DNA of 64,000 bases, from IMG/VR virus record IMGVR_UViG_3300027635_000001, positions 1 to 64,000 of that record; one strand, 5' to 3'. Under the pieces are notes generated by a model. The model did no database searches, was not told the DNA's origin, and worked only from the letters and a program-made list of their open reading frames with translations. This DNA comes from a virus. Of the stretch, positions 9,207 to 36,092 are shown piece by piece. The position numbers were made by a program, and so were the translations under genes. How positions within the stretch are numbered: position 1 is the stretch's first letter; the number at the start of each line of letters is the position of its first letter.

Positions 9207-9209
9207 CGG

Positions 9210-20200: not shown

Positions 20201-21480
20201 TGGCTCGCATTCGGAGCATCAAGCCGGAATTCTGGACTGACGAGAAGGTCGTTCATCTGCCGTTCGCGGCGCGCCTATTGTTCATAGGGATGTGGAATTT
20301 TGCCGACGACGAGGGGTTTCTCGAAAGCCAACCCGACCGGTTGAGATTGCAGATATTACCGAACGACGACGTCGACGTCGAGCTTTACGTCGACCTCCTA
20401 TGCGCAGCTGGACTGATCGATCGCATAGAACTTTCCGATGATCGCGAAATAATTTCAATCCCGAACTTCGCACGCCACCAAAAAATCTCTCACGTCACCA
20501 AAACCCGCTTTCCGGTAAACGCCGGAAAGAAGCGCATCATCCCTCTCGAAACGAGACGCTCGGTCGCCGTCAAGTACGGATGCAAGCCCGGAGGCGAGAA
20601 GGATGTGGAATGTTATTTCTGCGGAGCGAAGGGAAGCATCTGGTGGCCGACGACGAGAAAGGGGCGCCCATCGTCGTGGGTAGCGTTCTCCGGTGTGGAA
20701 TTGGATCATTTCATTCCGGAAAATACCGGAGGGACAGAAACCAATGAAAATATGGTCTTATCTTGCCGTTATTGCAACCGATCAAGGGGTAGCGGCGACG
20801 CTATCGGCTTTGCGCTCCGGAAAATACCGGAGGCTACAAAGAGCATTCCGGAAAATACCTGCTCAGTGAGCATTCCGGAAAATACCGGAGCGCTCCGGCC
20901 TGAAGGGAAGGGAAGGGAAGGGAAGGGAGAAGAGGATGAAAAGAAAGAATCCACTCTTGCTCATTCCGAATCCTCAGCCGCGCGAGAAGCCTCGACGAAA
21001 GAACGTGAAAAAGACGAAAGCTTGATTTCGAAATGCCGAAACTTGGTCGGCATGGAGCCGTGCAGCCAAGCTGAAGATTTTCACGAACTCGAGAGAATTG
21101 CTAGGGAAAACGGATGGACCGAAGTTGATATCCTCGCGGGGATAGCAACCGCCCTGCGCCGCGGAACCCAGCGCTTCAGCGCTTGGCAGAGTTTTGAGAA
21201 CTGGATCAGGAACGAGGTCAAGACCAGATTGGCGCGCATTCCCCGATCGGCTCAGCCCATCACCAGCGCACCCTCCGACGACCCGGTAATCGACCTTGGC
21301 GCCGTCCGAGACATCCAGTCGAAAATCGTCAACGCCATCCAGAAAATCGGGTGGGCGGGCTATGCCGGATGGGCGGAAACCGAGTTTGGCAGCGTCGAAA
21401 AATTCCGCGCCGCCATTGCCTCCCACGCCCCGCACCTGATGAAATTCTGGCCCGACGAACCGACGAGGGCGGTACGATGA
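20200..21480 (+). CDS. replication-initiator-like protein with central HNH motif and internal iterons
   Basis: The N-terminus MARIRSIKPEFWTDEKVVHLPFAARLLFIGMWNFADDEGF is a type I recall next to phage helicase genes. CYFCG...ELDHFIPENTGG...NMVLSCRYCNRSRG is an HNH. TAATG overlap with dnaB. Confidence 0.6.
   Translation: MARIRSIKPEFWTDEKVVHLPFAARLLFIGMWNFADDEGFLESQPDRLRLQILPNDDVDVELYVDLLCAAGLIDRIELSDDREIISIPNFARHQKISHVTKTRFPVNAGKKRIIPLETRRSVAVKYGCKPGGEKDVECYFCGAKGSIWWPTTRKGRPSSWVAFSGVELDHFIPENTGGTETNENMVLSCRYCNRSRGSGDAIGFALRKIPEATKSIPENTCSVSIPENTGALRPEGKGREGKGEEDEKKESTLAHSESSAAREASTKEREKDESLISKCRNLVGMEPCSQAEDFHELERIARENGWTEVDILAGIATALRRGTQRFSAWQSFENWIRNEVKTRLARIPRSAQPITSAPSDDPVIDLGAVRDIQSKIVNAIQKIGWAGYAGWAETEFGSVEKFRAAIASHAPHLMKFWPDEPTRAVR
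20714..20898 (+). repeat. four 17-bp iterons TTCCGGAAAATACCGGA (plus one partial copy)
   Basis: Copies at 20714-30, 20815-31, 20846-62 (variant ...CCTGC) and 20873-89, with a partial GCGCTCCGG at 20890-98. Each contains a TCCGG-N6-CCGGA dyad. Confidence 0.75.
20902..20950 (+). repeat. polypurine tract with (GAAGG)x5 pentanucleotide repeat
   Basis: GAAGGGAAGGGAAGGGAAGGGAAGGGAGAAGAGGATGAAAAGAAAGAA lies directly 3' of the iterons. Confidence 0.8.
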
Positions 21481-21656: not shown

Positions 21657-21880
21657 CCATTCCCCCCGATCAATCCGAACATCTCCGCAAATACGGCGCA
21701 ATCGACCACGCGCCGGTCCGCAAGCCCAAGCCGCGCGACCGGCTGTTCACCGACGCCGAGGTCGAGGAGATGCGCCAGTTCGAAGCGCTCAAGCTGACGG
21801 GGTATCTCGTCGGGCGCGAGTCTGAACCATGCGCGCCGATCGAGATCACGGCCGCATGCGATTTGGAGAAACTCGCCTGA
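21653..21880 (+). CDS. hypothetical protein (75 aa)
   Basis: MTIPPDQSEHLRKYGAIDHAP... ATGA overlap with the upstream stop. Confidence 0.45.
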   Translation: MTIPPDQSEHLRKYGAIDHAPVRKPKPRDRLFTDAEVEEMRQFEALKLTGYLVGRESEPCAPIEITAACDLEKLA

Positions 21881-22518
21881 TGCTCGCCACCCTCGACGCC
21901 GGCGGCCCCCGCGTCTCAGTCGACCGCACCGCGGCGCGGCTGTGGTACACGCTCAGCGTGATCCCGCAATCGCAAGCCCGCGTCTGCCAGCGCGCCCGCG
22001 AGCTCGGGATCGAAACCTACGCGCCGATGAGCCGCACGCCGCCAATGGTGCGCAAGTTCGGGCGCAAGCGCGTCGCCGAGGCTCAAGTGCGGCCGTTGAT
22101 GCCGGGGTATGTGTTCGTGTCGCTGCCGACCGTCGGCGCGAGGTTCGATGTGTTCGATCCCGCCAGTAGCGGCCCGGAGGCCATACGGGGCTCGCTGGGC
22201 TTCATCTGCGCGCGGCAGGGCGAATGGGACGAGCGGAGCCCGATGGCCGTCAGTGAGGCTGTAATCGCCAGCATGAGGCTACGTGAAGCGTCGGGAGAAT
22301 TCGACTTAACCGGCAAAACCGACCACGGCCGCCAATTCGTCGCCAAATGGGTAAAACGCGGCGTGCGGGTCCAAGTCGTGGAAAACTGCCCGTTCGCATA
22401 TTTTTTCGGCAGGATCGAGAGAGTCAGGAGCGCCAAGCTGATCACGGTCGCACTCACGCTTTTCGGCCGCGAAACGATGATGGACATGCCGTTGGATTTC
22501 ATCCGATGGGCTGGATAG
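21880..22518 (+). CDS. NusG-like (NGN + KOW) transcription antitermination factor
   Basis: LWYTLSVIPQSQARVCQRARELGIETYAPM...RPLMPGYVFVSL is NGN-like. The C-terminal GVRVQVVENCPFAYFFGRIERV...LFGRETMMDMPLDFI is KOW-like. It is the last gene before the late operon. Confidence 0.72.
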   Translation: MLATLDAGGPRVSVDRTAARLWYTLSVIPQSQARVCQRARELGIETYAPMSRTPPMVRKFGRKRVAEAQVRPLMPGYVFVSLPTVGARFDVFDPASSGPEAIRGSLGFICARQGEWDERSPMAVSEAVIASMRLREASGEFDLTGKTDHGRQFVAKWVKRGVRVQVVENCPFAYFFGRIERVRSAKLITVALTLFGRETMMDMPLDFIRWAG

Positions 22519-22941: not shown

Positions 22942-23481
22942 ATGTTCGGCCTCGTCACGAACTCCCAACTTCTCGCCAAGCTCAACGCGATCGCCGCGGG
23001 GCAGGCGACTCTGCTCGCCGACGTGCTGGAGATCATCAAGCTAGTCACTCCACCTGCAAGCGAGGCTGTGAAAATAAGGTTGGCTCTACCGACGATAACC
23101 AGAAAGGGTGTCATCATGGCAAACTATCCACTCCCGAATGACGAGGTCGTAACGATCGCGATTTTGACCGACGATCTCGCCGGCAATCCGGTCGCGCCGC
23201 CTCCAGGAGACACTTTCACGGTCGTATCGAGCATCCCGGCGAGCCTCGCTGCGACGGTGAATGGGACGAACGTCGTCATCAACGCCCTCGTCGCCGGGCA
23301 TCTCAACCCGCCTGCGCCGGCGGCTCCCGATCTGTTCATTACGGTCAGCGACAGCGCCGGGCTGCAAACCTTCGTCCAGGTCGTCGATATCGTCGCGGAT
23401 ACGGCGCCGAAGCAGATCACTCTCGACCTCGCCCACGCGACCGTGACCTCGCAGCCGGTTCCGACCGCGCCGGGGCCGTAA
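22942..23481 (+). CDS. hypothetical protein, C-terminal Ig-like-looking domain
   Basis: 179-aa ORF. ...VVTIAILTDDLAGNPVAPPPGDTFTVVSSIPASLAATVNGTNVVINALVAG...ITVSDSAGL resembles bacterial Ig-like repeats. Confidence 0.5.
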   Translation: MFGLVTNSQLLAKLNAIAAGQATLLADVLEIIKLVTPPASEAVKIRLALPTITRKGVIMANYPLPNDEVVTIAILTDDLAGNPVAPPPGDTFTVVSSIPASLAATVNGTNVVINALVAGHLNPPAPAAPDLFITVSDSAGLQTFVQVVDIVADTAPKQITLDLAHATVTSQPVPTAPGP

Positions 23482-23511
23482 GGCCAATTTCTACAGTAGA
23501 TTTAATTAGAA

Positions 23512-23874
23512 ATGGCCACCCGCGGAAAGAAGCCTGGAGCAAAAAAGACGGGTGGCCGCGTAGCTGGAACTCCGAACAAGGGTACTCGCGAAATCAAGGA
23601 GATAGCTCAACTCTACAGCCGCGAAGGCATAGAGCAGGCCGTCAAGATCATGCGGTCGCGCGCTCCAGCATCGGTTCGGCTTGTGGCTATCGAGAAAATC
23701 CTTGAGCGCGCCCACGGAAAGCCATCGCAGGCGCATCATCACTCTGGCGCCGTCGCTGTGGGCTCCTACGACTTGAGCAAGCTGCCGGATGACGAACTCG
23801 AGCGTGCATACGAGATTCTCAGCCGCGCCGCCACCGCCCCTCTCGGACTTCCTGGCGGAGATAGCGAGGCGTAA
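23512..23874 (+). CDS. putative terminase small subunit
   Basis: Basic N-terminus MATRGKKPGAKKTGGRVAGTPNKGTREIKE... then a helical region. It sits immediately upstream of TerL and overlaps it. Confidence 0.55.
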   Translation: MATRGKKPGAKKTGGRVAGTPNKGTREIKEIAQLYSREGIEQAVKIMRSRAPASVRLVAIEKILERAHGKPSQAHHHSGAVAVGSYDLSKLPDDELERAYEILSRAATAPLGLPGGDSEA

Positions 23875-25168
23875 GGCTGAGCGCCAGCGCGGCACAGAGG
23901 AGTGGCTCTGGTCATGGCGGCGCATCGGCCGGCCAGAGCAGCAGCCGCCGCCGGGCGATTGGCTCGTATGGCTGATCCTCGCCGGCCGTGGCTGGGGCAA
24001 GACTCGGACTGGCGTCGAGCATATCCGCGCCGAGGTCGAAGCCGGGCGCGCAAGCCGCATCGCCATCGTCGCCGAGACGGCGGCCGACGCGCGCGATGTC
24101 ATCGCCGAAGGTCCGTCCGGGTTTCTGTCAGTCGGGCCGCCGGAAAAACGGCCGCTCTACGAAAGTTCGAAACGCCGGCTGACTTGGCCGAACGGGGCAA
24201 CTGCGACGCTCTACAACGCGACCGAGCCGGACCAGCTTCGTGGACCTCAGTTCGATGCGGCCTGGTGTGACGAATTGGCGAAGTGGGGCTATTCCAAGCC
24301 CGGCAGTTCAGCCCGCTCGCTAGGCCAAGAGACATGGGACATGCTGCAGTTCGGCTTGCGGACCGGCTCGGCTCGATGCGTGGTGACGACGACGCCGCGG
24401 CCCGTGCCGCTGGTCAAGGCTCTGCTGGCGGCGCCGCGCACGCATGTCACGCGCGGTACGACGATGGACAACGCGGCGAATCTCTCGCCGGAGTTCATCA
24501 AGAAAATCCGCGATCGTTACGCGGGCACGCGGCTCGGCCGGCAGGAACTGAACGCCGAGGTTCTCGACGACGTTCCCGGCGCGCTGTGGACCGGCGCGAT
24601 GTTCGACGAGCGCGGCTTTCGCGTCGGCCCGGCTCCGGATATGGCGCGCGTCGTGGTCGCGATCGACCCGAGCGGCGCGCGCGGCGCGGATGACGATGGC
24701 GCGGACAGCATCGGGATTGTCGTGGCCGGCCGCGGCGTCGACGGCCGCGGCTACGTGCTCTCGGACCTGACTTGCCGCTTGTCGCCGATGGGATGGGGGC
24801 GGGTCGCGGTGCAAGCCTATCGCGACTTCGGGGCAGACCGGATCATCGCGGAGCGCAACTTCGGCGGCGCGATGGTCGAGCATGTCATCCGCTCGATCGA
24901 CAAGAACGTCAGCTATTCCGAGGTCACGGCCTCGCGCGGCAAGATCGTCCGCGCCGAACCGATCGCGGCGCTCTACGAGCAGAAGCGCGTTTCACATGTC
25001 GGCCCGTTCGATGGCTTTGAACTCCTCGAGGCGCAAATGTGCGCGATGACCTCGAACGGCTACATCGGCGAGGGCTCGCCGGACCGGGTTGACGCGCTGG
25101 TGTGGTGCCTGACTGAGTTGCTATCGACGGGATCGACGTATGACCACAGCCTCAGCTGGGTTGAATGA
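23789..25168 (+). CDS. terL: terminase large subunit
   Basis: Walker A LILAGRGWGKTRTG, ...RIAIVAETAADARDV..., PQFDAAWCDELAKW, and a C-terminal nuclease region VVAIDPSG...GIVVAG. The true start may lie downstream of 23789, which overlaps TerS by 86 nt. Confidence 0.9.
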   Translation: MTNSSVHTRFSAAPPPPLSDFLAEIARRKAERQRGTEEWLWSWRRIGRPEQQPPPGDWLVWLILAGRGWGKTRTGVEHIRAEVEAGRASRIAIVAETAADARDVIAEGPSGFLSVGPPEKRPLYESSKRRLTWPNGATATLYNATEPDQLRGPQFDAAWCDELAKWGYSKPGSSARSLGQETWDMLQFGLRTGSARCVVTTTPRPVPLVKALLAAPRTHVTRGTTMDNAANLSPEFIKKIRDRYAGTRLGRQELNAEVLDDVPGALWTGAMFDERGFRVGPAPDMARVVVAIDPSGARGADDDGADSIGIVVAGRGVDGRGYVLSDLTCRLSPMGWGRVAVQAYRDFGADRIIAERNFGGAMVEHVIRSIDKNVSYSEVTASRGKIVRAEPIAALYEQKRVSHVGPFDGFELLEAQMCAMTSNGYIGEGSPDRVDALVWCLTELLSTGSTYDHSLSWVE

Positions 25169-25305
25169 GCGACTACTGGCGTTTCGTAGCGTGGTTAGCC
25201 ATCGGTTGCCTTGCTGTCGGATTCGTTTCCGGATTGCTGGGATTTGGCCCCCAGGCTGTCCTATGGCTGCCAGCATGGCAGATACGGTTTGGGGCTACTG
25301 AATGA
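25165..25305 (+). CDS. 46-aa hydrophobic peptide (below ORF-track cutoff)
   Basis: My own translation is MSDYWRFVAWLAIGCLAVGFVSGLLGFGPQAVLWLPAWQIRFGATE. ATGA overlaps with the TerL stop and the next start. Confidence 0.4.
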   Translation: MSDYWRFVAWLAIGCLAVGFVSGLLGFGPQAVLWLPAWQIRFGATE

Positions 25306-25535
25306 ACATCACAATCATTCCAGGCGAGGCCGAAGAGTACGCGCCCGCCAAGGACATCCGCACCGAGGCCGAAAGCGATGCTGATTATCGTAGGCGGCTG
25401 CTGCTCGATCCGGATGTTTTGCGGCACGACACGGACCAGGAAGCCTCCCTCAAGGCCATGCAGGGAGAGGTGCTGGACGCCCTCGGCGCGAGGCATCATC
25501 TGATCCGCATCCACACGTATATCTCGCCGCGATGA
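25302..25535 (+). CDS. hypothetical protein (77 aa)
   Basis: ORF coupled (ATGA) to both the upstream peptide and the portal. Confidence 0.45.
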   Translation: MNITIIPGEAEEYAPAKDIRTEAESDADYRRRLLLDPDVLRHDTDQEASLKAMQGEVLDALGARHHLIRIHTYISPR

Positions 25536-27085
25536 GCCTCGTCACCGGCGTAACCGACGCCTATCACCGCATCGGCGACACCCTCATCAATCTGATCACC
25601 GGGCTCGGGACGGCGAAGGACCCGCGCACGTCCTCGCATTTCGTATTCCGCGAGCTCGACCGCCATATCCTGGAGAAGATGTATCGCTCCGACTGGCTCG
25701 CGCGGCGCATCGTCGATCTTCCCGCACAGGACGCGACCCGCGAATGGCGGCAGTGGTCGGCGTCTCGCCCACAGCTGGAAAAGATCGACCTGCTCGAAAA
25801 GCACCTGCAGGTGCAGAACAAGATGCGGATGGGTCTGATCCGCGCGCGGCTCTACGGCGGCGGCGCGCTGGTGCTCGGCGTGGACCAGGGCCAGCCGGAA
25901 GAGGAACTCGACCTCGATGGCGTCGGGCTGAATGATTTGAAATTCGTGGTGGTGGTCAACAGGTACGAGCTCGCCGCCGGCCCGCGCATCTATAACGTCG
26001 ACTCGCCCTATTACACCCGGCCGGAATACTATACCGTCGCCACCCCCATGTTCGGTTTCTTCGGTGAAGGCGGGGGCGCCTTCCCTGCCACGCCCAGCCA
26101 GGGCGGCGCGCCCCCGATCCTCAGCGACCCCGGCAGGCAGGTGCAGCCTGGCTACGGCATGGTGCGCGTGCACCCGTCTCGGGTGATCGAGTTCAGCGGC
26201 AACGAGCTTCCCGACTGGCGTCTGGCCCCGCTCGGCGGCGGCTGGGGCGATAGCGTGCTGCAGACGGTCGACGACGCGCTGCGCGATTTCTCGATGATCA
26301 CGGCGGGCTTGGCCAGCATGGTCAACGACATGAAAATGGATGTCGTCAAAATCCCGGAATTGACGAGCAAGCTGTCGACCGCCGATCGCACCCAATTGCT
26401 GCTGAAGCGGTTCACTGCCGCGAACATGGCCAAGTCCTCGATCAACACCCTCCTGCTCGACACGGAAGAGGAGTGGAACCGCATAACGACCAGCTTTGGG
26501 AGCACTCCCGAGTTGATCAAGGTCGCGATGACTGTGGCCTGCGGCGCCGGCGGAATACCCGAATCCCGCGTCATGGGCTCCTCGCCGGGCAAGGGGCTAG
26601 CGGGAGCCGGCGGCAGCGGCGGCGAGGTCGATATTCTCAACTACAACAACGACATCGCCTCGAAGCAGAAGACCGAATACAAGCCTATCATGTACGCGCT
26701 GGATCGCTGCATCACGCAATCGGCGATCGGACGCTACGACCCGCACATCGATTACGAGTGGAACCCGCTTTCCCGGCCAACCGCGGCGGAATTGGCGGAT
26801 GTCGCGCTCAAGAAGGCGCAGGCGACACAGATTTACGTCGCCAGCGGGCTCTTCAATGAGGACATGCTGCGCGACTCCATCATATCGCAGCTGACCGAGG
26901 ACAACGTGTATCCCGGCATGGAGAACGCGCTTGACGAACATGGCGCTGAGCCCGAGGAGCCAGACGTGCCGCCGCAGGGGACTATGCCGCAGGGGCAACT
27001 CGGCTCCAACCCGTTCGAGGCGCTAAAGGGGCAGGCTGCGGCCAAGGCTGGCTTGCCCCCGCCGGGGGGCAAGCAGACGCCATGA
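25532..27085 (+). CDS. portal protein (DUF1073-type)
   Basis: 517 aa, directly after TerL. ...NLITGLGTAKDPRTS..., WLARRIVDLPAQDATREW, ...SINTLLLDTEEEW... resemble the DUF1073 portal family as I recall it. Confidence 0.8.
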   Translation: MSLVTGVTDAYHRIGDTLINLITGLGTAKDPRTSSHFVFRELDRHILEKMYRSDWLARRIVDLPAQDATREWRQWSASRPQLEKIDLLEKHLQVQNKMRMGLIRARLYGGGALVLGVDQGQPEEELDLDGVGLNDLKFVVVVNRYELAAGPRIYNVDSPYYTRPEYYTVATPMFGFFGEGGGAFPATPSQGGAPPILSDPGRQVQPGYGMVRVHPSRVIEFSGNELPDWRLAPLGGGWGDSVLQTVDDALRDFSMITAGLASMVNDMKMDVVKIPELTSKLSTADRTQLLLKRFTAANMAKSSINTLLLDTEEEWNRITTSFGSTPELIKVAMTVACGAGGIPESRVMGSSPGKGLAGAGGSGGEVDILNYNNDIASKQKTEYKPIMYALDRCITQSAIGRYDPHIDYEWNPLSRPTAAELADVALKKAQATQIYVASGLFNEDMLRDSIISQLTEDNVYPGMENALDEHGAEPEEPDVPPQGTMPQGQLGSNPFEALKGQAAAKAGLPPPGGKQTP

Positions 27086-27423
27086 GCGATTTTACGATCG
27101 GCCACGGAACCCCGGTGCAAAATCGGATTCCGCAGACGTTTATTCAGCAAGCTCACGAAGTCGCCAAGCGGGGACTCGCGATATCGTCGATGAATGGCTG
27201 GCGCTCTATTGAAACGGCACCGAAGGACGGAACGCGCATCCTCGGGTTTGGGCTATGGGCCGGGGAAATCAACGGCATCGAAACGGTCCCCGAGATGCTC
27301 GCCATCGAGTACGGCGCGGGCGGGGATTATCCGGGATTTGACTGGATCGTCTGCGGAACCGATGCGTATGCCGCATGGATGAAGCCGACGCTCTGGCATC
27401 CGTTGCCGAATCGCCCGGACTGA
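27082..27423 (+). CDS. DUF551-like protein
   Basis: NGWRSIETAPKDGTRILGFG... and the C-terminal KPTLWHPLPNRP match the DUF551 pattern (W.sIe.aPkDG..vL ... THWmPLP). Confidence 0.55.
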   Translation: MSDFTIGHGTPVQNRIPQTFIQQAHEVAKRGLAISSMNGWRSIETAPKDGTRILGFGLWAGEINGIETVPEMLAIEYGAGGDYPGFDWIVCGTDAYAAWMKPTLWHPLPNRPD

Positions 27424-28577
27424 TGGACACGTTCGACCCCGCCGGCCTCGGCGACATCCGCGCCCGCTTCGATCGCGAGACGACACGCCGCTGGACAAAG
27501 ACCGCGCGCGCCGTCAAGCGCGCCATCGTCGCGGACGACGCGCTCGGCATTGGCCCGAAGGCGCCGCGGATGGCGCAACCGGTCGCCGACAAGGCGTCGA
27601 TGTTCAAGCGCTGGCTCGACGAGCAGCTGATGATCGGCGTCGTCGGCCATGACGCCGGGTGGCTCGGGCCGCATGTGCAGGCGGCGGCGGCGCGGGCGTT
27701 GGCTCTGGCGATCAAGGATTACGACCCGGACGAGCCGCGCGACGAAAGCGGCAAGTGGAGCAGTGGTTCCGGAGGCCTGGTTTCTGGCGTCGAGCGCGCG
27801 GCCTTTCCGCCGCATATCCAAGCGCTGAAACTGCCGCCGGCCTGGACTGATGTCCGGATCAATCCGAACCCCGACGCCGATCTGCTGGCGATTGGCAAAG
27901 ACAAAAAGGGTCGCTCGCAATACGTATATTCGGCAAAGTTCCAAGGCGACCAGTCCGCGCAGAAGTTCAACCGGATCGCCGAACTCGAAAGCAGCGCGCC
28001 GGGGATCGCCGCCAAGAACGATGCTAACCGGGCATCGTCGGACCCAACTCTGGCCGAACATGCCGACGCGCTGCATCTCATCATGCAGACGGGCGTGCGA
28101 CCTGGCAGCGAGGACGACACTGGCGCCGACAAGAAAGCCTACGGCGCCACGACGTTGGAGGGTCGCCACGTAACCGGCTCTGGCGCTGATACGGCGCTGC
28201 AATTCGTCGGCAAGAAGGGCGTCTCGCTAAATCTGCCAATCACCAACGAGAGCGTGGCTTCGATGCTGGCATCCCGCGCCGCGAACGCAGGGCCGAACGG
28301 GCAACTGTTCCCGAACGTCAGCGACGCCAGCCTCCGCGATTATGTTCACGGCGTCGCCGGCGCTGGGGTCAAGGTCAAGGACTTCCGCACCCTGGTCGGC
28401 ACATCGACCGCTCGCGCGGAAGTCGCCAAGATAGCCGCGCCAAAAACGGCGGCGGATCGCAAAAAGGCTATAATGTCCGTCGCAAAAGTGGTATCCTCCA
28501 AGCTCGGCAACACGCCGACGATCGCATTGCAGAGCTACATTCATCCGAACGTGTTCGGAGGTTGGGGAAATGGCTGA
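27423..28577 (+). CDS. type IB DNA topoisomerase domain fused to a ~125-aa N-terminal domain of unknown function
   Basis: LPPAWTDVRINPNPDADLLAIGKDKKGRSQYVYS, TGVRPGSE, YGATTLEGRHV, LQFVGKKGVSLNLPI, KVKDFRTLVGTSTA, LGNTPTIALQSYIHPNVF. These supply the Arg/Lys/Arg/Asn/Tyr catalytic set of bacterial/poxvirus-type TopIB. Confidence 0.8.
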   Translation: MDTFDPAGLGDIRARFDRETTRRWTKTARAVKRAIVADDALGIGPKAPRMAQPVADKASMFKRWLDEQLMIGVVGHDAGWLGPHVQAAAARALALAIKDYDPDEPRDESGKWSSGSGGLVSGVERAAFPPHIQALKLPPAWTDVRINPNPDADLLAIGKDKKGRSQYVYSAKFQGDQSAQKFNRIAELESSAPGIAAKNDANRASSDPTLAEHADALHLIMQTGVRPGSEDDTGADKKAYGATTLEGRHVTGSGADTALQFVGKKGVSLNLPITNESVASMLASRAANAGPNGQLFPNVSDASLRDYVHGVAGAGVKVKDFRTLVGTSTARAEVAKIAAPKTAADRKKAIMSVAKVVSSKLGNTPTIALQSYIHPNVFGGWGNG

Positions 28578-28746
28578 CGAGTTGCCGAAAATCCACATCG
28601 GGAGTGTCGACGAGAAGTCGGTCGACTTGGACGATCCTGCGACGGCGAGGGATGGCGAGCCGGACAACGACGCGCAGGATGACGACAAGCAAACGCCGCC
28701 TTGGGTGAAGGCGGCGCTGGGGTTTGATCCGGCAGACGCGGCTTAG
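28570..28746 (+). CDS. 58-aa acidic protein (below ORF-track cutoff)
   Basis: My own translation is MADELPKIHIGSVDEKSVDLDDPATARDGEPDNDAQDDDKQTPPWVKAALGFDPADAA. It overlaps the TopIB 3' end by 8 nt. Confidence 0.35.
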   Translation: MADELPKIHIGSVDEKSVDLDDPATARDGEPDNDAQDDDKQTPPWVKAALGFDPADAA

Positions 28747-28749
28747 TCG

Positions 28750-29058
28750 TCACTCCGTAAGTCGTATAATTCGGCAGCCTGAACTGCAGGCTGCGCGCAC
28801 CGCGTCCGGAGTATTGCCCCAAGCCTCTATGCCGTCTCCCGGCATATAACGCGGCCCTATCGCGATAAAGCACAGGTGGGAGTCGAACGGCCCCATGCGA
28901 GAGATCGGCAGGGCAGCGCGCCTGGTGATCACGGGTTGAGGCACGGTCATCAATGGCGCATCGAGCCAGTCTAGGCGCTTTACCGGCTCGTCCCATTCAG
29001 AGACAATCCGCATGAGCGCTTCTGTCTGAATTGAAGGAGCGTGAAAAATATCGGTCAT
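28750..29058 (-). CDS. hypothetical protein (102 aa), antisense insert in head module
   Basis: Internal start MTDIFHAPSIQTEALMRIVSEWDEPVKRLDW... It is the only minus-strand gene between the portal and the MuF-like gene. Confidence 0.5.
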   Translation of the reverse strand: MTDIFHAPSIQTEALMRIVSEWDEPVKRLDWLDAPLMTVPQPVITRRAALPISRMGPFDSHLCFIAIGPRYMPGDGIEAWGNTPDAVRAACSSGCRIIRLTE

Positions 29059-29194
29059 AGTCAGGCGTCCTCTATCTCGTCTATCGGAACCAGCGGCCAC
29101 TGCCACTGGCCTACGTTGATCCATTCGTCGGCTGAGCGCCATCCGGCAAGCCAAGCTCGTGCCTCGGAAGTGGGGTGCATAAGTCAAGAACTAA

Positions 29195-29911
29195 ATGCAC
29201 TCGCGGGGTGCTTTTGAGATGTCCTCCAGCCAAGCCAATCCATCGGCTGCGGCATGTCACGCGGCGTCGGTTTCTCACCTCGCTGACATCTGCGATTACG
29301 TGAGCCAGCGCGCGCACGAGATTGTGTCTGCGGCCCTCCTTTCGCGGCAGCGTCCGGCACAGATCGGCCGCCTCCTCGACCGCGCCTTCGGGGAAGGGCT
29401 GCGGCGGTCGCGGATGCTCGCCGAGCACGCGGTCACCCAGGCTTACAGCCAAGCGGCGCTGGACGCGCTCGAAGCGCGCGGCGTGACCCATGTCGGGACG
29501 GTGAGCGAGCGCGCGGCGCGGAAAGCGACAACGATCGCCGATCTCGCCGACGAAATGCGCTTCACCCCGCAACCGCAGCATCCGCGCACCGGCCGCTTCG
29601 CCGAGGAGCACGTCGTTGCACGTGAAACGCGCCGCAGTCCGCGCACCGGCCGGTTCCGCCCGCAGGGCATCTCGCTGGCGCAGCGGCGCAAAGAGGAGCG
29701 GGCCGAAGCGGCGTTCGCGAAGGTCAAGGGGAAAGTGGATATTCTCACTGCGGAAGACGATAAGGTCTGCGCGCGTTGTGAAGAAGTGTCGGAAAACGGG
29801 CCGTATACGATAAATAAAGCTAGATCGCTGATTCCGTTGCATTTTCACTGCCGATGTCAATTTGTCGCTGCTGGGTCTATGGCGATGGATACTGTGGCCA
29901 CGGCAGGATGA
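29195..29911 (+). CDS. head morphogenesis protein (SPP1 gp7 / Mu F-like)
   Basis: The C-terminal DDKVCARCEEVSENGPYTINKARSLIPLHFHCRCQFV is the MuF signature. Two PRTGRF motifs are present. Alternative start at 29219. Confidence 0.7.
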   Translation: MHSRGAFEMSSSQANPSAAACHAASVSHLADICDYVSQRAHEIVSAALLSRQRPAQIGRLLDRAFGEGLRRSRMLAEHAVTQAYSQAALDALEARGVTHVGTVSERAARKATTIADLADEMRFTPQPQHPRTGRFAEEHVVARETRRSPRTGRFRPQGISLAQRRKEERAEAAFAKVKGKVDILTAEDDKVCARCEEVSENGPYTINKARSLIPLHFHCRCQFVAAGSMAMDTVATAG

Positions 29912-29946
29912 CCGACGCCCCCGACCTCCGCACCTGGGATGCCTGA

Positions 29947-30789
29947 ATGCCCACCCTCGAGATCACCACCAACATCGGCTGTCCGCTGATGTGCGCATAC
30001 TGCCCGCAAGCCAAGCTGAAGACCTCTTACGGCAAGAACATGAAGTGGTTGTCCTTCACGGACTTCGTGGCTATTCTGGCGAAGGTTCCGCGATACGTGC
30101 GCATCGACTTTTCCGGTATGTCGGAGCCTTGGATCAACAGCGAGTGCACGGCGATGCTGCGCCATGCGCTGCGCCGCGGATACAACGTCGCGCTTTACAC
30201 GACGCTGGTCGGATTGACCGACCCCGACGACGTGATCGGATTGCTGAGGGGGCACCGCGAGCAAGTCGAATGCGTCGTAATCCACTTGCCGGACGATCAA
30301 GGCAATATGCTCGGCTTCATCCCCACCGGGCAATATGACAGGGCTCTAAAGGCATTCATAGCCTTCGATGCAGAAGGCGGGACGAAGTGGTTCCGGTGGA
30401 TGGCGATGGGCGCCGCTGTTTCTCGCAATGATGTCGCTACCACCATGGAATGGATCGCCAACGATCGCGCTGGCTCGCTATCAGGCGAGCGCGTCGAGCC
30501 GGTGCAGCATGAGACGCCGGTGAGCTGTTCGTTCACGCCGTTCTACGATCAGAATGTGCTGCTGCCGAATGGCGATGTGGTGCTGTGCTGCATGGACTAT
30601 GAACTGAAGCACAAGATCGGGAACTTGCTGACGGACGACTATTTCGCGCTGTTCGCATCGCCCGAGATGGGACGGCTCCGCGCCGAGAACACCAAGTGCG
30701 GCGGCGACGGCTCGATCTGCAAGCGCTGCGTGCGGGCGACGCGGTACGAGGTTTCGCCCGGGTTCAAGCAGTTTTGGGCAGCGGCATAG
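29947..30789 (+). CDS. radical SAM enzyme with C-terminal SPASM/twitch-like Cys cluster
   Basis: CPLMCAYC (CxxxCxxC) at aa 12-19. C-terminal ...LPNGDVVLCCMDYELKHKIGNLL...NTKCGGDGSICKRCVRAT. Confidence 0.82.
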   Translation: MPTLEITTNIGCPLMCAYCPQAKLKTSYGKNMKWLSFTDFVAILAKVPRYVRIDFSGMSEPWINSECTAMLRHALRRGYNVALYTTLVGLTDPDDVIGLLRGHREQVECVVIHLPDDQGNMLGFIPTGQYDRALKAFIAFDAEGGTKWFRWMAMGAAVSRNDVATTMEWIANDRAGSLSGERVEPVQHETPVSCSFTPFYDQNVLLPNGDVVLCCMDYELKHKIGNLLTDDYFALFASPEMGRLRAENTKCGGDGSICKRCVRATRYEVSPGFKQFWAAA

Positions 30790-31018
30790 CCGCATCCTGC
30801 CAATCAGCAAGACGTTTGCCGACCCATTGGCTCGCCAACTGTTTGAACATTCGCTCAGCGTGTTCGCGCGACCCTTGGATGTCGACGACGGTAAGCAAGT
30901 CTATCAGACTGTCGGGCGTCGCACGCTCGAAAGGGTTCGGACCCGTGTAGACATGAGCCAGAACCTTGATCCTTGTGCCTGCGTCTTCGAATGAGTGGTC
31001 CGGTCCCCATTGTGACAT
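30764..31018 (-). CDS. hypothetical protein (84 aa)
   Basis: ORF downstream of the ParB-like gene on the minus strand. It converges on the radical SAM 3' end and overlaps it by 26 nt. Confidence 0.5.
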   Translation of the reverse strand: MSQWGPDHSFEDAGTRIKVLAHVYTGPNPFERATPDSLIDLLTVVDIQGSREHAERMFKQLASQWVGKRLADWQDAAMPLPKTA

Positions 31019-31073
31019 TTGCGCGTCCTTTCATCGTTTTGGTCGCCGGGTTCAAGCAGTTCTGGCAGGCGGC

Positions 31074-31955
31074 TTAGAATGTCAAATCTATGGGAAGCTT
31101 GTTCCCCTCTCGCAGGCCCTTGTTGATCGCATTCACGAACCCGCTAGCATACACCTTTGCGCCTCCCCTTGCGAACACGGCGGCTACTTTGCTTGCTTCG
31201 CGCAAAAGCATATCCACCCCCACGGCAAAAATCCTGGCTGCCCATCGCTGATCTGACAGCGACGAGCCTTCCGGCATTTTCGATTCAAGATAAAGAAGAC
31301 CGTGGATGATCCGCTCATGCATAGGCTCGCCATCACATAGTTTTACGATGACCGGCCATATGCGAACTAGATCGGCCCTTCGCTCGGTCGCCGCAGCCAT
31401 TAAACTGCCCACACACGCGACGGTTGTCGAAGATTGTTGTTTCTTAGGTTCCCGACCAGCTTGAGCTATAAGACTATTTACGAACATCGCCGTTTCGTCA
31501 TGTGAGCACAACAAAGCGCGAAATGACTGAACCGAAGTAAGAGGCTTTCGGTTTGCGTTGACCCGATAGAAACCACGAGCTTCAGCTTCCTGGTCTTTAA
31601 CTTTAAAAACCATTGATGGAATCGTGACAATATCGGGGCGTATCTTAGCCGCCTCGACTCGATGCATACCGTCGACTACGTAGTAATCACCGTTACGGTC
31701 GGCAACGACTATGCTACCGCATGCTACCCAAGACCAAGTCTTCGCCATGAGAATGATCTTGCGCTTGCTATCCTGGTCTCGCTGATAGGCCGGATCGCCA
31801 CGCAATTCGAACTTGTCGATTTCCTCGAACACACCCCGTTGATCGGGCGTGATGTCCAGTACGAGTTGCCCCACACGTAGTTGTTTCTCGCTACCGTTGT
31901 TTCGAGAGTCAACGGACGTCAAGATGTTGTGTTCAAGAGAGAGTGAAGCGGCCAT
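31074..31955 (-). CDS. ParB/Srx-fold N-terminal domain protein (ParB-like nuclease/NTPase domain)
   Basis: ...IVVADRNGDYYVVDGMHRVEAAKIRPD... is the DGxHR ParB-N motif. GGAGGAG lies 9 nt upstream of ATG 31955. Visibly lower GC than its flanks. Confidence 0.62.
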   Translation of the reverse strand: MAASLSLEHNILTSVDSRNNGSEKQLRVGQLVLDITPDQRGVFEEIDKFELRGDPAYQRDQDSKRKIILMAKTWSWVACGSIVVADRNGDYYVVDGMHRVEAAKIRPDIVTIPSMVFKVKDQEAEARGFYRVNANRKPLTSVQSFRALLCSHDETAMFVNSLIAQAGREPKKQQSSTTVACVGSLMAAATERRADLVRIWPVIVKLCDGEPMHERIIHGLLYLESKMPEGSSLSDQRWAARIFAVGVDMLLREASKVAAVFARGGAKVYASGFVNAINKGLREGNKLPIDLTF

Positions 31956-32128
31956 TTGTAAGTCTCCTCCGCGGTCCGGCCCGATCAAGCCTGGAGCGCG
32001 AGCACAAGGGTCACATAAAAGCGACGACCGGCCGCAGAGAAGTTCGGAAATGGCGCCGCACTGCAAATCGCGTTGATCGCCGCGAAGCCCGAATGTGAAC
32101 ACGTCAATCAATAGGATGTCAACCACAA

Positions 32129-32371
32129 ATGTTCGCTTATGAAGAGCCAAGCGCCTCCCCTCCTTCCGACATGCTCGCCGCACTGCAGAAGGGCGTGAGG
32201 CAACCGGCAGACATGACGGCGATTGACAATTCCGGGTTCACCTTCCTGTGCCGAGTGCTCTGGTTCATCGACTTAAGCCTTTATCCCCAAGAGGCCGAAC
32301 GAATCGCCACGCGCTGCAAAACCGACGCTCGCTTACGCGCCGTCATAGACGCCCATAGACGACGGGGCTAA
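32129..32371 (+). CDS. hypothetical protein (80 aa)
   Basis: ORF divergent from the ParB-like gene. Confidence 0.4.
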   Translation: MFAYEEPSASPPSDMLAALQKGVRQPADMTAIDNSGFTFLCRVLWFIDLSLYPQEAERIATRCKTDARLRAVIDAHRRRG

Positions 32372-32374
32372 CCC

Positions 32375-32602
32375 ATGCGCAAACCGCTCGCCGTGACCGA
32401 CGCCGACGCGATTGAGGTTAGCGAATTCAGCCCAGAATCCGCTGGATGGATTCGCGTCCCTGGAAGGCCTCGTACATGGGAGAAGCCAGACGGCACTCTG
32501 TATGAATTTTCCCCTCGAGCACGCGAAGTCCTCGTGGCCCCAAAAGAAAACCTGCCCGCGATGACGCGCAGGATCGCCAAAGAGAGGGGGCTGAGCGAAT
32601 GA
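32375..32602 (+). CDS. hypothetical protein (75 aa)
   Basis: ORF whose stop overlaps the next start. Confidence 0.45.
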   Translation: MRKPLAVTDADAIEVSEFSPESAGWIRVPGRPRTWEKPDGTLYEFSPRAREVLVAPKENLPAMTRRIAKERGLSE

Positions 32603-34350
32603 GGCGCGCATCACCTATCGCGGTCACAGATGCCGACGGCCGCTCATGGACCCGCGCGCTCGCTCTGTCTGACCGCGAGACCATACTCGACGGCGTCACC
32701 CGTCATCGCGACGGCTATCTGATCGCCGACGCCCGCGTGGCCCGCGTGGGCACGCAGACCTACAAGGGCTTCGAGGTAGGGCTTCCCGATCGCGAGCGCG
32801 TGACGCTCTACCGGCCGCCGGAGGAGGTCTTCGCCACCGACTCGATGCGCAGCCACGCCAACAAGCCTGTCACGCTGACGCACCCGAAGCGGATGGTCGA
32901 CTCGACGACGTGGGGCAAGGTCGCCAAGGGATTCAGCGGCTCCGACGTCGTCAGGGACGGCGATTATGTCCGCGTGCCGCTGATGCTGACCGACGCGGCG
33001 GCGATCGATGCTTATGAGACTGGGAAGGCCCGCGAACTCTCCGTTGGCTATACGACCGACATCGACTGGACTGCAGGCGCGACGCCGGACGGGAAGGCCT
33101 ATGACGGCGTCCAGCGCGATATCCGCGTCAACCATCATGCGTTCGTTCCGGTCGCGCGCGGCGGCGAGAACCTGCGCTTCGGAGACGCCATGAGCACCAC
33201 GAAGTTCTGCAAGGACTGCGGCGGCGCGATGGCGATGAAAGACGGGCAGTACAGCTGCAAGGGTTGCGGCGGCGGCCAGATGCGCGATGGCCTGAATTTC
33301 TGTTCGAACTGTGGCAGCGGCTTGACTGGCGATGACCAGATGGCCTGCCCGACCTGCGGCTTCGATCTCAAGCCCACGCCGCGCAGCAACGACGACGATC
33401 CGATGGAAGACGACGACGACATGATGGACCGGTTCACCGTGGATCGCGACGGCCGTCTGATCGCCGATACCTCGTTCACCGCCGAGGAGCGGCGCGATCT
33501 CGCCAAGCGCGGGCTAGCGAAGCCGGACGGGAGCTACCCGATCAGGAACAAGGAAGACCTGAAACACGCCAAGGAAGCCTACGCGCGGGGCGGCGCGACC
33601 GCATCCGACAAAGCGTGGATCAACAAGCGGGCCAAGGCGCTTGGAGAACCCCTACTTGGCGAAACTGACGCCGCAGACAACGGCATTTCAAGGAGCAGTG
33701 TCATGCCTATCACCAAGACGTTCGACGGCGTCCCGATCCAGTTCGTCGACGAGATTTCCGCGGCCGCGATGACCCGCGAGGTCGCGCGCTTGCAGGGGGT
33801 CATCGACGCTGCGGCAAAGGCGAAGAAGAAGGACGATGACGACGACGCCGACGAGGAGATGGAGCGCGAGAAGAAGGAGCGCGGCTATCAGGACGCGATC
33901 AAGGCCAAGGACGGCGAAATCGCGGTGCTGAAGAAGCAGGTCGCCGATGCGACGCTGACCGACGCCCAGATCGACGCACGTATCGAAGAGCGCGTGCGCG
34001 TGTTCGACGCCGCCAAGCCGCATCTTGCGAAAGATTTCAATCCGGCCGGCAAGAGTTTGTCCGACATCCGCCGCGCGACGGTGGCCGTCTCGCTCGGCGA
34101 CGCCGCGATCAAGGACTGGGACGACGCGCAGGTCTCCGGCGCGTTCGCCGCCGTGACCGCGGCTGGCGTCAAGAAGGGCGGCGCGACCCTGCTGGCGGAC
34201 GGTATGTCTGATGCCATGCGCATGAATGCCGGCCGCATTGGCGGGGCTTCCTTGGCCGACGCCGAGGCCGACGCAGCCAAGGCGCACGCCGAATACGTCA
34301 AGCGGCTGCAGGACGGCTACAAGACGCCGATCGGCTCGGCGAGGAATTGA
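32599..34350 (+). CDS. DUF2213-type prohead protease/scaffold protein with Zn-ribbon insert and coiled-coil C-terminus
   Basis: The N-terminus GYLIADARVARVGTQTYKGFEVG...VTLYRPPEEVF...ANKPVTLTHP...ELSVGYT resembles DUF2213. Three CxxC pairs lie in the middle. The C-terminal half is charged and helical. Confidence 0.68.
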   Translation: MRRASPIAVTDADGRSWTRALALSDRETILDGVTRHRDGYLIADARVARVGTQTYKGFEVGLPDRERVTLYRPPEEVFATDSMRSHANKPVTLTHPKRMVDSTTWGKVAKGFSGSDVVRDGDYVRVPLMLTDAAAIDAYETGKARELSVGYTTDIDWTAGATPDGKAYDGVQRDIRVNHHAFVPVARGGENLRFGDAMSTTKFCKDCGGAMAMKDGQYSCKGCGGGQMRDGLNFCSNCGSGLTGDDQMACPTCGFDLKPTPRSNDDDPMEDDDDMMDRFTVDRDGRLIADTSFTAEERRDLAKRGLAKPDGSYPIRNKEDLKHAKEAYARGGATASDKAWINKRAKALGEPLLGETDAADNGISRSSVMPITKTFDGVPIQFVDEISAAAMTREVARLQGVIDAAAKAKKKDDDDDADEEMEREKKERGYQDAIKAKDGEIAVLKKQVADATLTDAQIDARIEERVRVFDAAKPHLAKDFNPAGKSLSDIRRATVAVSLGDAAIKDWDDAQVSGAFAAVTAAGVKKGGATLLADGMSDAMRMNAGRIGGASLADAEADAAKAHAEYVKRLQDGYKTPIGSARN

Positions 34351-34394
34351 AACAAACGGCAAGAGAGGCGCAGCTCTAGCCAAAGGAAACCGAA

Positions 34395-34907
34395 ATGCTC
34401 ACCCCTCTCCCGTTGCAGACCACCTATCAGCAGTATGAGACCGTCGCCCAGAACGGGATGCCCGCGAGCATGACCGGCTGGGACGCCGACAATCGCATCG
34501 CCGAGGACCTCGGCAGCGGCATTCCCTTCGGCCGCGCTGTTTGCCAAGGCACCGCATCCGACAAGGCGGCAACGCTCGGCCAGCTTTCGGGCGGCGAGTT
34601 CATCGGAATCACGATGCAGGATGTCACGCTGCCGCTTTCGACCACGCGGCCGGTCGATACCTATGAGGATACCGACAACATGGCGGTGATGGTGCGCGGC
34701 GACATCTGGGTGATTCCGCTCGGTAACGTCGTTGCCGGCGCCCAGGTCTATTATGACAGCGTGACCGGCCAGCTCGGGCCGTCGACCGTCGCCAACGCCG
34801 TGCTGATCACGCACGCGCGGTGGCAGACCAACCTTCCTGACACGGCCCAGCCGCTCGTCAATTTCAATGGCCTGGCGGTCGTACGACTAGGCGCTTCCGC
34901 GCAGTAA
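34395..34907 (+). CDS. putative head decoration/cement protein (DUF2190-like)
   Basis: 170-aa beta-rich ORF between the scaffold and the major capsid. GEFIGITMQDVT...MAVMVRGDIWVIPLGNVVAGAQVYYD resembles the family as I recall it. Confidence 0.5.
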   Translation: MLTPLPLQTTYQQYETVAQNGMPASMTGWDADNRIAEDLGSGIPFGRAVCQGTASDKAATLGQLSGGEFIGITMQDVTLPLSTTRPVDTYEDTDNMAVMVRGDIWVIPLGNVVAGAQVYYDSVTGQLGPSTVANAVLITHARWQTNLPDTAQPLVNFNGLAVVRLGASAQ

Positions 34908-34944
34908 CCAATCAAGGCGTTCAATCAAGTCTGAAACCCCTGGC

Positions 34945-34970
34945 GTCGCCGTGTGAGGCGCGACGGCGAC
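34945..34970 (+). promoter_or_regulatory. 8-bp perfect hairpin immediately 5' of the capsid gene ribosome-binding site
   Basis: GTCGCCGT-(10 nt)-ACGGCGAC, followed directly by AGGAGA (34971-76) and ATG 34983. Confidence 0.35.
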
Positions 34971-34982
34971 AGGAGAACCTTC

Positions 34983-35927: not shown

Positions 35928-36092
35928 CTGCGAGCGGGCTGGCTAGGGTCATTTACTTACCGTCACGCTGTCCGGCTTTCGCCGTCGTGGAGTTGAACCA
36001 CAAATCACCAGACTTAAGCGCTCGCCCCAGTTACGGCATGCGCGGCCCGCTCGCGAGGGCATAGTTACTCGCGGCATAGGAGAAACGCAAGC

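Follow-up and report, generated by a model that had tools for sequence, protein, structure and literature searches.

Poxviruses package a type IB DNA topoisomerase (TopIB) in the virion core, and the enzyme promotes early transcription. To our knowledge, an encapsidated TopIB is known among viruses only from poxviruses, and no tailed phage is known to have a topoisomerase in its particle. Here we describe a TopIB gene at 27423-28577 (+ strand), situated within the head module of a tailed phage and found in the IMG/VR record IMGVR_UViG_3300027635_000001; the window – the whole stretch of 64,000 nucleotides analysed – comprises positions 1-64,000 of that record, and all coordinates are window positions. 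The open reading frame (ORF) encodes a bacterial/poxvirus-type TopIB with an intact active site. Sequence comparison strongly suggests that the enzyme is delivered by the virion, and in the reading we favour – a probable one, if well short of assured – a catalytically competent TopIB is virion cargo that enters with the genome and serves as a swivel on the incoming DNA. It would thus be, as we propose by analogy, a counterpart of the encapsidated poxvirus enzyme.

Phages provide their own precedents for such delivery. The T4 ADP-ribosyltransferase Alt, the N4 virion RNA polymerase and the P1 Dar proteins are enzymes carried in the head, delivered with the DNA and acting in the first minutes (PMC5512222), although their folds and activities are unrelated to those of TopIB and none of them alters DNA topology. 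Fusion to portal or MuF proteins, together with residence among virion genes, was recognised by Iyer et al. 2017 as the mark of packaged and injected proteins (PMC5512222). The polyvalent, portal and MuF effectors of that study resemble the family described here in the fusion of cargo to MuF or portal proteins, in being encoded beside virion genes, and in the co-occurrence of ADP-ribosyltransferase, NUDIX, InPase and 2H domains, which we also find with TopIB. However, a classical polyvalent protein has 2-15 domains (PMC5512222), whereas the window protein consists of one carrier fragment and one enzyme; it has a single enzymatic domain instead of the multiple effector domains that characterise polyvalent proteins, while multidomain relatives, such as the protein P0097, do exist. 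The main text of Iyer et al. 2017 contains the word 'topoisomerase' once, in a reference title, and has no tyrosine-recombinase-fold domain, nothing on linkers, glycine or low complexity, and no acidic TopIB-linked peptide.

The MuF polymorphic toxins (Jamet et al. 2017, PMC5576092) also come close: they share the N-terminal MuF-type carrier, the variable C-terminal enzyme, the location in the head module of temperate phages and the small downstream gene. In the present case, by contrast, only the first ~100 amino acids (aa) of a MuF-like protein are fused, with the Pfam MuF core residing in a separate gene or undetected. The small downstream product also differs from an immunity protein in that it is often part of one polypeptide with TopIB or with the next cargo. 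TopIB goes unmentioned in the main text of that paper, and no description of a head-module or portal-fused phage TopIB was found in the literature searched, subscription journals lying outside that search. In our view the head-module TopIB adds a cargo type to the portal/MuF/polyvalent framework of delivery already known, and what sets it further apart is a putative partner peptide, hitherto unreported, and its apparent behaviour as a cassette.

The gene and its parts are as follows, with residue numbers referring to the 384-aa form of the protein.

27423-28577 (alternative start 27375), + strand: TopIB fusion gene, encoding carrier, junction motif and TopIB in that order
27435-27731, + strand: carrier segment, aa 5-103, predicted by AlphaFold2 to be helical at low confidence (predicted local distance difference test, pLDDT, 42-72)
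27720-27758, + strand: junction motif YDPDEPRDESGKW, followed by the Gly-rich SSGSGG at 27759-27776
27783-28574, + strand: TopIB proper, aa 121-384, a small N-terminal beta domain and the catalytic domain
28098-28100 (R226), 28212-28214 (K264), 28386-28388 (R322), 28509-28511 (N363) and 28536-28538 (Y372), + strand: catalytic codons

Read from 27375, the ORF (27375-28577) encodes 400 aa; read from the ATG at 27423, which overlaps the upstream stop codon as TGATG, it encodes 384 aa. Because conservation with relatives begins at residue 5 of the shorter form, either start is possible.

The first-pass annotation, made from the sequence before any database search, had read the C-terminal part as a TopIB with its catalytic tyrosine, an assignment that profiles, structures and active-site residues all bear out. 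Pfam Topoisom_I (PF01028) matches with E=5.5e-20 (72.2 bits against a curated cut-off of 23.7) and Top1B_N_bact (PF21338) with E=8e-9 (35.5 bits against 27), while alignment to sequences in the PDB retrieves the Deinococcus radiodurans TopIB (2f4q, E=5e-23) and that of variola virus (2h7f, E=1e-7). The AlphaFold2 model, with pLDDT >95 over residues 121-384, shows three N-terminal strands followed by helices; its top 22 Foldseek matches are all TopIB, headed by 2f4q/3m4a (E about 3e-15) and including the variola enzyme (TM 0.67), and the N-terminal domain of the vaccinia enzyme (1vcc) is weakly matched. The full R-K-R-N-Y set – R226 (VRPGS), K264 (VGKKG), R322 (KDFRT), N363 (LGNTP) and Y372 (QSYIH) – aligns with the motifs of the D. 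radiodurans and variola enzymes, and none of the five positions varies among 71 IMG/VR relatives, an indication that catalysis is under selection. Judged by its sequence, the TopIB of this phage is apparently complete and catalytically active.

TopIB shares its chemistry and catalytic fold with tyrosine recombinases and protelomerases, and Foldseek did return weak matches to XerH and to P2/HP1 integrase (E about 1e-2), as might be expected of a site-specific recombinase or a hairpin-telomere resolvase that processes genome ends. Yet TopIB structures match about 13 orders of magnitude better, both TopIB profiles exceed their cut-offs, the TopIB-type N-terminal beta domain is present, and a separate integrase is encoded at 1667-2965. 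The recombinase or resolvase alternative, rejected on profile and fold scores, is in our view barely credible.

Compared with the poxvirus enzymes (vaccinia/variola; 2h7f, 3igc, 1a41), the phage protein is the same kind of small two-domain TopIB with the same catalytic positions – in vaccinia virus, the pentad that we take to be R130, K167, R223, H265 and Y274 – but the two share 21-22% identity, and the phage enzyme has Asn in place of the general-acid His, as bacterial TopIB does. Host and particle differ as well, as the phage enzyme belongs to a bacterial virus with a tailed particle, where it is tied to head-protein carriers by a junction motif and accompanied by an acidic peptide gene, neither of which is known in poxviruses. 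The best match in both sequence and structure is the cellular TopIB of D. radiodurans (2f4q/3m4a), which has the same R-K-R-N-Y set, Asn included, and likewise matches Top1B_N_bact, although the phage protein covers only the last 29 of the 49 positions of that profile. Nine cellular bacterial TopIBs (including those of Rhodobacteraceae, L107-L114) are products of stand-alone genes and have a C-terminal tail of 31-55 aa, which is missing from the phage type; none of the nine comes with the junction motif or the acidic peptide. Identity within the phage clade is 44-61%, as against 26-30% to cellular bacterial TopIBs. Bacterial TopIB was proposed by Forterre and Gadelle 2009 to derive from a viral TopIB group 'not yet discovered' (PMC2647321), and the phage clade is a candidate for a concrete viral source of these patchily distributed bacterial enzymes.

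The family is large. A word-indexed protein search returned 1,483 relatives, almost all aligning in the TopIB part alone (47-61% identity) and many bearing portal (PF06381), MuF, NUDIX, ADP-ribosyltransferase, Zeta-toxin or 2H domains. An exhaustive HMMER search found 1,375 clusters (50% identity) at E<=1e-30; its profile covered all 616 positions of the relative P0013 and was dominated by TopIB, so that it informs on family size and not on the N-terminal domain, and nearly all of the 150 matches listed, in proteins of up to 2,365 aa, were through the TopIB part. In IMG/VR, 190 of 203 pattern matches encode a TopIB relative (at least 190 loci). Locus-level analysis was carried out on the best 80 of these loci, and fusion partners were sought by Pfam scan in 71 non-redundant ORFs drawn from them. 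In nearly all 80 loci the ORF ends with the TopIB domain, ahead of which it carries an N-terminal extension of 20 to >1,000 aa. The partners identified in the 71 ORFs were:

Phage_portal_3: 22 ORFs
Phage_portal_2: 3 ORFs
Phage_portal: 1 ORF
NUDIX: 8 ORFs
InPase: 4 ORFs
MuF: 3 ORFs
DUF2213 (protease): 1 ORF
ADP-ribosyltransferase: 1 ORF

Portal-TopIB fusions, then, account for 26 of the 71 ORFs and span three portal Pfam families. The same portal-TopIB and MuF-TopIB fusions are seen in proteins from independent gene callers (P0029, P0032, P0070, P0071, P0101, P0017), and independent look-ups place TopIB also directly behind HK97-type and Mu-type portals. Among the upstream neighbours with a Pfam match there are about 10 terminases, 9 portals, 4 MuF and 4 InPase proteins, and among the corresponding downstream neighbours 9 MuF proteins, 7 DUF2213 proteins, 5 ADP-ribosyltransferases and 2 S78 proteases; replication families are absent from the Pfam-matched neighbours on both sides. 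The first-pass annotation had proposed a virion-borne topoisomerase, with relaxing or circularising the incoming genome or countering defence as its possible tasks, and a survey of TopIB in the head modules of other phages. That survey now yields 26 of 71 portal fusions, and most of the Pfam-matched neighbours fall into the terminase, portal, MuF, prohead protease or effector-type classes; these fusions and neighbours, read against the signature of Iyer et al. 2017, strongly support the proposed association with the virion. As a side observation, portal (PF06381)-TopIB fusions such as P0032 carry the NCBI name 'anti-CBASS Acb1 family protein', which looks like an annotation inherited from the portal-family model.

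Portal C-termini point into the capsid interior, and TopIB carried on them in the 26 fusions would accordingly lie within the head. That position would also suit a swivel that resides in the capsid and is never injected: attached at the portal crown, directly or through MuF, TopIB might dissipate DNA twist during packaging and ejection and stay behind in the empty head. The portal fusions, with their flexible Gly-rich linker, could put up to 12 copies at the point of DNA entry and exit; the enzyme, needing neither ATP nor Mg2+ by established biochemistry, could work within a capsid; and its gene is always found in a portal-protease neighbourhood. On the other hand, the junction motif also precedes ADP-ribosyltransferase and NUDIX domains, which have no plausible capsid role and suggest a shared delivery route, TopIB in many relatives is a free protein of ~300 aa or belongs to a very long polyvalent protein and is no portal fusion, and nearly all well-studied phages package their DNA without any such enzyme. 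We consider a purely capsid-resident role distinctly unlikely.

Could the gene instead encode an ordinary late enzyme of DNA metabolism, caught in a head operon but absent from the particle, that relaxes or resolves replicating or concatemeric DNA before packaging? The TopIBs found in cultured phages, distant at 22-28% identity, do lie in non-structural regions: top1E of Bacteroides phage BS162P1 lies amid small hypothetical genes, and ORF108 of Ralstonia phage phiRSL1, which shares the tyrosine-recombinase-fold catalytic domain and is 22-24% identical to the head-module clade, lies amid genes of NAD and nucleotide metabolism and not in a head module, with no portal or MuF annotated in the region shown. 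Iyer et al. 2021 treat the phage-specific TopIB of a few jumbo phages under DNA topology and recombination (PMC7824862). Such a role would nonetheless make the repeated fusions to portal, MuF and prohead protease, across three portal families, hard to explain, and the pattern argues strongly against it; moreover, none of the Pfam-matched neighbours belongs to a replication family, and in this genome DnaB, RecT, the integrase and the methylases are encoded elsewhere, so that the first-pass annotation was right to set TopIB apart from the replication genes. We give the late-enzyme alternative very little weight.

In the window itself, TopIB is not fused to a portal but to an N-terminal domain, as the first-pass annotation had recognised. 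This domain appears to be the N-terminal segment of a MuF-like head protein: carrier residues 5-103 match aa 20-146 of P0013 (BLASTP, E=2e-11; alignment A5), a 616-aa protein in which a MuF-like carrier region is followed by TopIB. The carrier segment has no Pfam MuF or portal match, and in the word-indexed search the N-terminal 105 aa gave a single match, P0121. What follows in the P0013 carrier is found further downstream in the window:

29195-29911, + strand: split MuF-like minor head protein, remainder
29267-29509, + strand: its middle part
29582-29599 and 29639-29656, + strand: two junction-like motifs, (Q)HPRTGRF and SPRTGRF
29735-29866, + strand: its Cys-rich C-terminal motif

Residues 25-105 of this remainder match aa 155-236 of P0013 (BLASTP, E=1e-9), and residues 179-224 match aa 247-292 (59% identity over 46 aa, E=1e-18), the latter match covering the Cys-rich CxxC...CRC motif of the P0013 carrier region. 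As the carrier and the gene at 29195-29911 thus correspond to successive parts of the P0013 carrier, the MuF-like gene appears to have been split in this phage: its first ~100 codons now run into YDPDEPRDESGKW, a Gly-rich stretch and TopIB, and the rest restarts 0.6 kb downstream. The remainder has weak minor-head matches (phrog_115/2841/758, E=1e-5); against TIGR01641 it reaches E=0.003 and 17.9 bits, below the cut-off of 39.65, and Pfam MuF (PF04233) is absent even at E<=10. A Pfam MuF assignment was rejected on this last count, and the MuF label is kept as a weakly supported one.

The two PRTGRF motifs, whose presence in the neighbouring MuF-like protein had been noted at first pass, both fall in a ~70-aa insert between the middle and C-terminal MuF parts, for which P0013 has no counterpart at the equivalent site. 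The likeness then drawn between them and the PRDxxGKW linker proves right: the linker belongs to a recurrent junction motif, and the two PRTGRF copies are junction-like. Throughout the family this motif reads (E)HPRx3-8GxF/W with a Gly-rich stretch behind it; the window's PRDESGKW (PRDxxGKW) is one of its forms, and further forms include (F/W)xE(S/x)EHPRxxxGKFxxGGGG and longer variants such as EHPRGQPENAGQF. Visible in the consensus of alignments A1/A6, the motif is found in 179 of 288 relatives in the 60-aa stretch ahead of TopIB, where shuffled sequences would lead one to expect 2.9. It separates the cargo domains in portal-, MuF- and polyvalent-type relatives – in multidomain proteins it stands before each of them, as in P0079 (ADP-ribosyltransferase, then TopIB), P0097 (NUDIX, ADP-ribosyltransferase, TopIB) and P0026 – and it forms the N-terminal tag of free ~300-aa TopIBs. 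The DUF2213 protease encoded at 32599-34350 is a candidate for the enzyme that processes it.

That the junction motif marks the border of an exchangeable unit is indicated by comparison with a second phage, L016 (IMGVR_UViG_3300048502_000003). The two share one substantial blastn match:

27768-28733, no strand assigned: shared segment, comprising Gly linker, TopIB and the acidic peptide gene

The match extends over 967 bp at 81.6% identity, from just past the junction motif to just short of the stop codon of the acidic ORF, and the encoded TopIBs are 90% identical, whereas the portals and terminases of the two phages have no detectable similarity (E=0.19 and 0.003). In L016, TopIB is joined to the C-terminus of the portal ORF through another form of the junction, FDESKHPRGHGGEF, with an apparent frameshift interrupting the ORF. 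The same TopIB therefore sits on a MuF N-terminal-like segment in one phage and on a portal C-terminus in the other, with the breakpoint at the junction motif, which points to an exchangeable cargo unit. As to the frame itself (L016 3653-6014), it breaks ~190 nt into TopIB and resumes in another frame, owing either to an assembly indel or to a real frameshift that parts the portal from most of TopIB.

On this sequence evidence we read the shared segment as a mobile cassette, for which window and L016 are the single clear case: an all-against-all megablast of the 80 IMG/VR loci gave no further informative pair sharing the cassette only. A wider proposal, which we put forward as a tentative one that may well prove wrong, is that TopIB and the acidic peptide form a self-contained mobile cassette, which enters portal, MuF and polyvalent head proteins at their junction motifs in tailed phages of very different kinds, that the peptide is a DNA-mimic inhibitor or adaptor of the clamp, and that the clade is the undiscovered viral TopIB group of Forterre and Gadelle (PMC2647321). 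Were this so, it would be common for uncultured phages to inject a DNA swivel as a first-minute factor.

An acidic peptide gene is likewise linked to TopIB.

28570-28746, + strand: acidic 58-aa peptide gene

This ORF, whose product is very acidic, overlaps the TopIB stop codon by 8 nt, and a GGAGG lies 8 nt ahead of its ATG. The product is a member of a conserved family of ~50-aa peptides with the consensus LPDVHFG..DWR..DPDDEEL..TP.DV.AMLGFDP (alignment A7); at least 61 of 76 IMG/VR loci have such a peptide behind TopIB. The C-terminal motif of the family has only 72 occurrences in the 1.59 million six-frame residues of these 76 loci, and a reverse search by degenerate DNA pattern retrieved 14 loci, all with TopIB directly upstream. 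In some relatives (P0077, P0117, P0220 and others) the peptide is in-frame at the C-terminus of TopIB; elsewhere the next protein begins with it and continues with another junction motif and cargo domain. In the natural TopIB-acidic-tail fusion P0077, the tail is modelled by AlphaFold2 as mostly disordered (pLDDT 43-73) with a short C-terminal helix. Co-inherited as it is, the peptide is most likely a partner of TopIB, which it may either keep inactive as a DNA-binding clamp in the producing cell or capsid, or tether to the downstream cargo.

A small conserved gene directly behind an enzyme gene recalls the layout of toxin-immunity modules, and the most serious competitor to delivery as a swivel for phage DNA builds on this likeness. 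An injected TopIB might relax or nick the host chromosome, or defeat a defence that depends on DNA topology, with the acidic peptide as its immunity factor or inhibitor in the producing cell, much as in the pairs of MuF polymorphic toxins; host shut-off or anti-defence would result. The company kept by TopIB would be fitting, as it shares polypeptides or neighbourhoods with ADP-ribosyltransferase, NUDIX, InPase, 2H phosphoesterase, Zeta-toxin kinase, Acb1 and NADAR (which we interpret as host-directed or anti-defence), and so would its movement between unrelated phages in the manner of conflict cassettes. But the few molecules carried by a particle would have to outpace host gyrase over an entire chromosome, this analysis came upon no defence system known to be countered by relaxation, the conservation at 50-60% identity is high for an effector engaged in an arms race, and the peptide is in many relatives in-frame with TopIB or with the N-terminus of the next cargo, which is unusual for an immunity protein. 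Weighing these points, we regard a host-directed effector as unlikely, if deserving of attention.

Returning to TopIB as a swivel delivered with the phage genome, its course might be pictured as follows. The enzyme would be expressed late, in transcription and translation, together with the portal gene; the MuF N-terminal-like segment and the junction motif would bring it into the procapsid, as direct fusion to portal or MuF would in many relatives; it would lodge in the head beside the packaged DNA and enter the next host cell along with the genome. There it would work as a swivel that needs neither ATP nor Mg, nicking the entering DNA through a 3'-phosphotyrosyl bond to Y372, and would relieve positive and negative torsional stress during internalisation, first transcription and circularisation of the phage DNA. 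Encapsidation, ejection, the substrate, and the roles of junction motif and peptide are all things that we infer from the comparisons above. If the enzyme is packaged, DNA topology joins the things that phages control at entry, and the polyvalent/portal/MuF delivery system is extended by a further kind of cargo, by a conserved junction motif and by a protein that may be a partner or inhibitor of TopIB; portal-TopIB fusions and the junction motif could also guide the engineering of protein cargo into phage heads.

Several points weigh against this picture. A folded clamp of ~30 kDa would need unfolding to pass the tail channel, and the one argument for action on incoming DNA is the poxvirus analogy. 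The window's own TopIB is not portal-fused, the MuF assignment of its carrier being a single pairwise match (E=2e-11) with no Pfam counterpart and a low-confidence model. The junction motif is kept in phages whose portals and proteases belong to different families, and so makes a poor candidate for a site specific to any single protease; in the AlphaFold2 model of P0077 the acidic tail was not confidently docked on TopIB. A relative on a contig of 226 kb lies amid ADP-ribosyltransferase, NADAR and Acb1 genes and not in a recognisable head module. Finally, a search of 50,697 deposited phage records (INPHARED), with the window TopIB and P0117 as queries, returned matches of 22-28% identity only (Bacteroides phage BS162P1, phiRSL1, BCSR5 and one uncultured phage), none of them in a head module. 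That no cultured phage carrying the family was found is likely why it has escaped study; in GTDB, too, the phage-type TopIB (44-54% identity) is found on contigs of metagenome-assembled genomes only, from many phyla, and the true cellular TopIBs there are 27-30% identical.

The 226-kb contig just mentioned (L014; JGI 3300055493 Ga0556689_000001) is of jumbo-phage size. Its stretches 2003-5817 and 8001-9359 were noted, and its TopIB, with a fused acidic tail, is P0117; besides ADP-ribosyltransferase, NADAR and Acb1 (anti-CBASS) genes, the surroundings encode a 1,666-aa SNF2 helicase, and portal and capsid genes are absent within 8 kb.

The head module of the window runs, in order, through the large terminase, the portal, a 113-aa ORF, TopIB, the MuF remainder, the DUF2213 protease, the cement protein and the major capsid protein, with further genes on either side of the MuF remainder. 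Apart from the TopIB, acidic peptide and MuF-like genes already given, its features are:

23789-25168, + strand: large terminase subunit, start of the head block (Pfam Terminase_6N E=3e-21, Terminase_6C E=4e-8)
25532-27085, + strand: portal protein of Phage_portal_3 type (Pfam PF06381 E=1.5e-77; phrog_146 E=2e-101)
27082-27423, + strand: 113-aa ORF between portal and TopIB, its stop overlapping the TopIB start (TGATG)
28750-29058, - strand: 102-aa ORF between the acidic peptide gene and the MuF remainder, a gene call in public assemblies, coding status uncertain
32599-34350, + strand: head maturation protease of DUF2213 type, 583 aa (Pfam PF09979 E=8.6e-46; phrog_530 E=2e-76)
34395-34907, + strand: cement protein (Pfam Phage_cement E=1.3e-25)
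34953-35927, + strand: major capsid protein, end of the head block (Pfam Major_capside E=1e-77)

Terminase, portal, 113-aa ORF and TopIB form one same-strand run, in which gene overlaps join TopIB to the portal. The first-pass annotation had placed TopIB between portal/DUF551 genes and a MuF-like gene; the position within the head block stands, and so, with its weak support, does the MuF label, but DUF551 does not, as the 113-aa ORF has no Pfam, PHROG or NCBIfam match and nothing in Pfam even at E<=10. The 102-aa ORF on the opposite strand likewise has no Pfam match at E<=10, and its longer 145-aa form (28750-29187) has a G+C content at third codon positions of 0.60, compared with 0.72-0.84 in the neighbouring head genes. 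A scan of 23000-36500 for promoters and terminators gave counts no higher than in shuffles and is therefore uninformative on transcription units.

Between the MuF remainder and the protease lie two genes that are unusual cargo for a head module: a radical-SAM/SPASM protein (29947-30789, + strand; SPASM E=8e-8, Radical_SAM E=3e-5, the latter below its cut-off) and, in the opposite orientation, a ParB-like DUF6551 protein (31074-32183, - strand). The DUF2213 protease itself has a double zinc-ribbon-like segment at aa 220-260 (a weak match), and its C-terminal half, long and acidic/Ala-rich, may be a fused scaffold.

As to the phage as a whole, eight metagenomic contigs encode the identical TopIB protein, and seven of these are 50-200 kb long (the two shown being 73,072 and 72,986 bp), so that the window appears to be a piece of a ~73-kb phage genome that has been assembled repeatedly. 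Its portal has at most 34% identity to the portal of any deposited phage. Besides RecT and DnaB, the window encodes:

1667-2965: integrase, separate from TopIB
12354-13004: GcrA-like cell-cycle regulator (E=8e-10)
14871-15887: Dam-type N6-adenine methyltransferase
16516-17388: C5-cytosine methyltransferase

With an integrase and the rest of this gene content, the phage looks temperate. GcrA on its own hints at an alphaproteobacterial host, and together with the two methyltransferases it suggests such a host and an interference of the phage with methylation-dependent cell-cycle control.

A few minor observations concern other parts of the window. Upstream of the terminase region, a NusG-domain protein (21829-22518, + strand; PF02357 in the public annotation of the same contig) may be an antitermination factor for the late operon. 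Five perfect tandem copies of AAGGG – the complement of CCCTT, the cleavage pentamer of poxvirus TopIB – lie at 20903-20927 within the ORF of an HNH-domain protein (20119-21480), where they encode EGKGREGKGE; the array is probably a coincidental coding repeat, and the poxvirus-type site YCCTT is neither enriched nor avoided in the window (170 occurrences against 177 +/- 12 expected). In the tail/late region, a 1,098-aa protein (59720-63016, + strand) contains a SAM-methyltransferase domain (Methyltransf_11, E=6e-9) and could be a further virion-associated enzyme.

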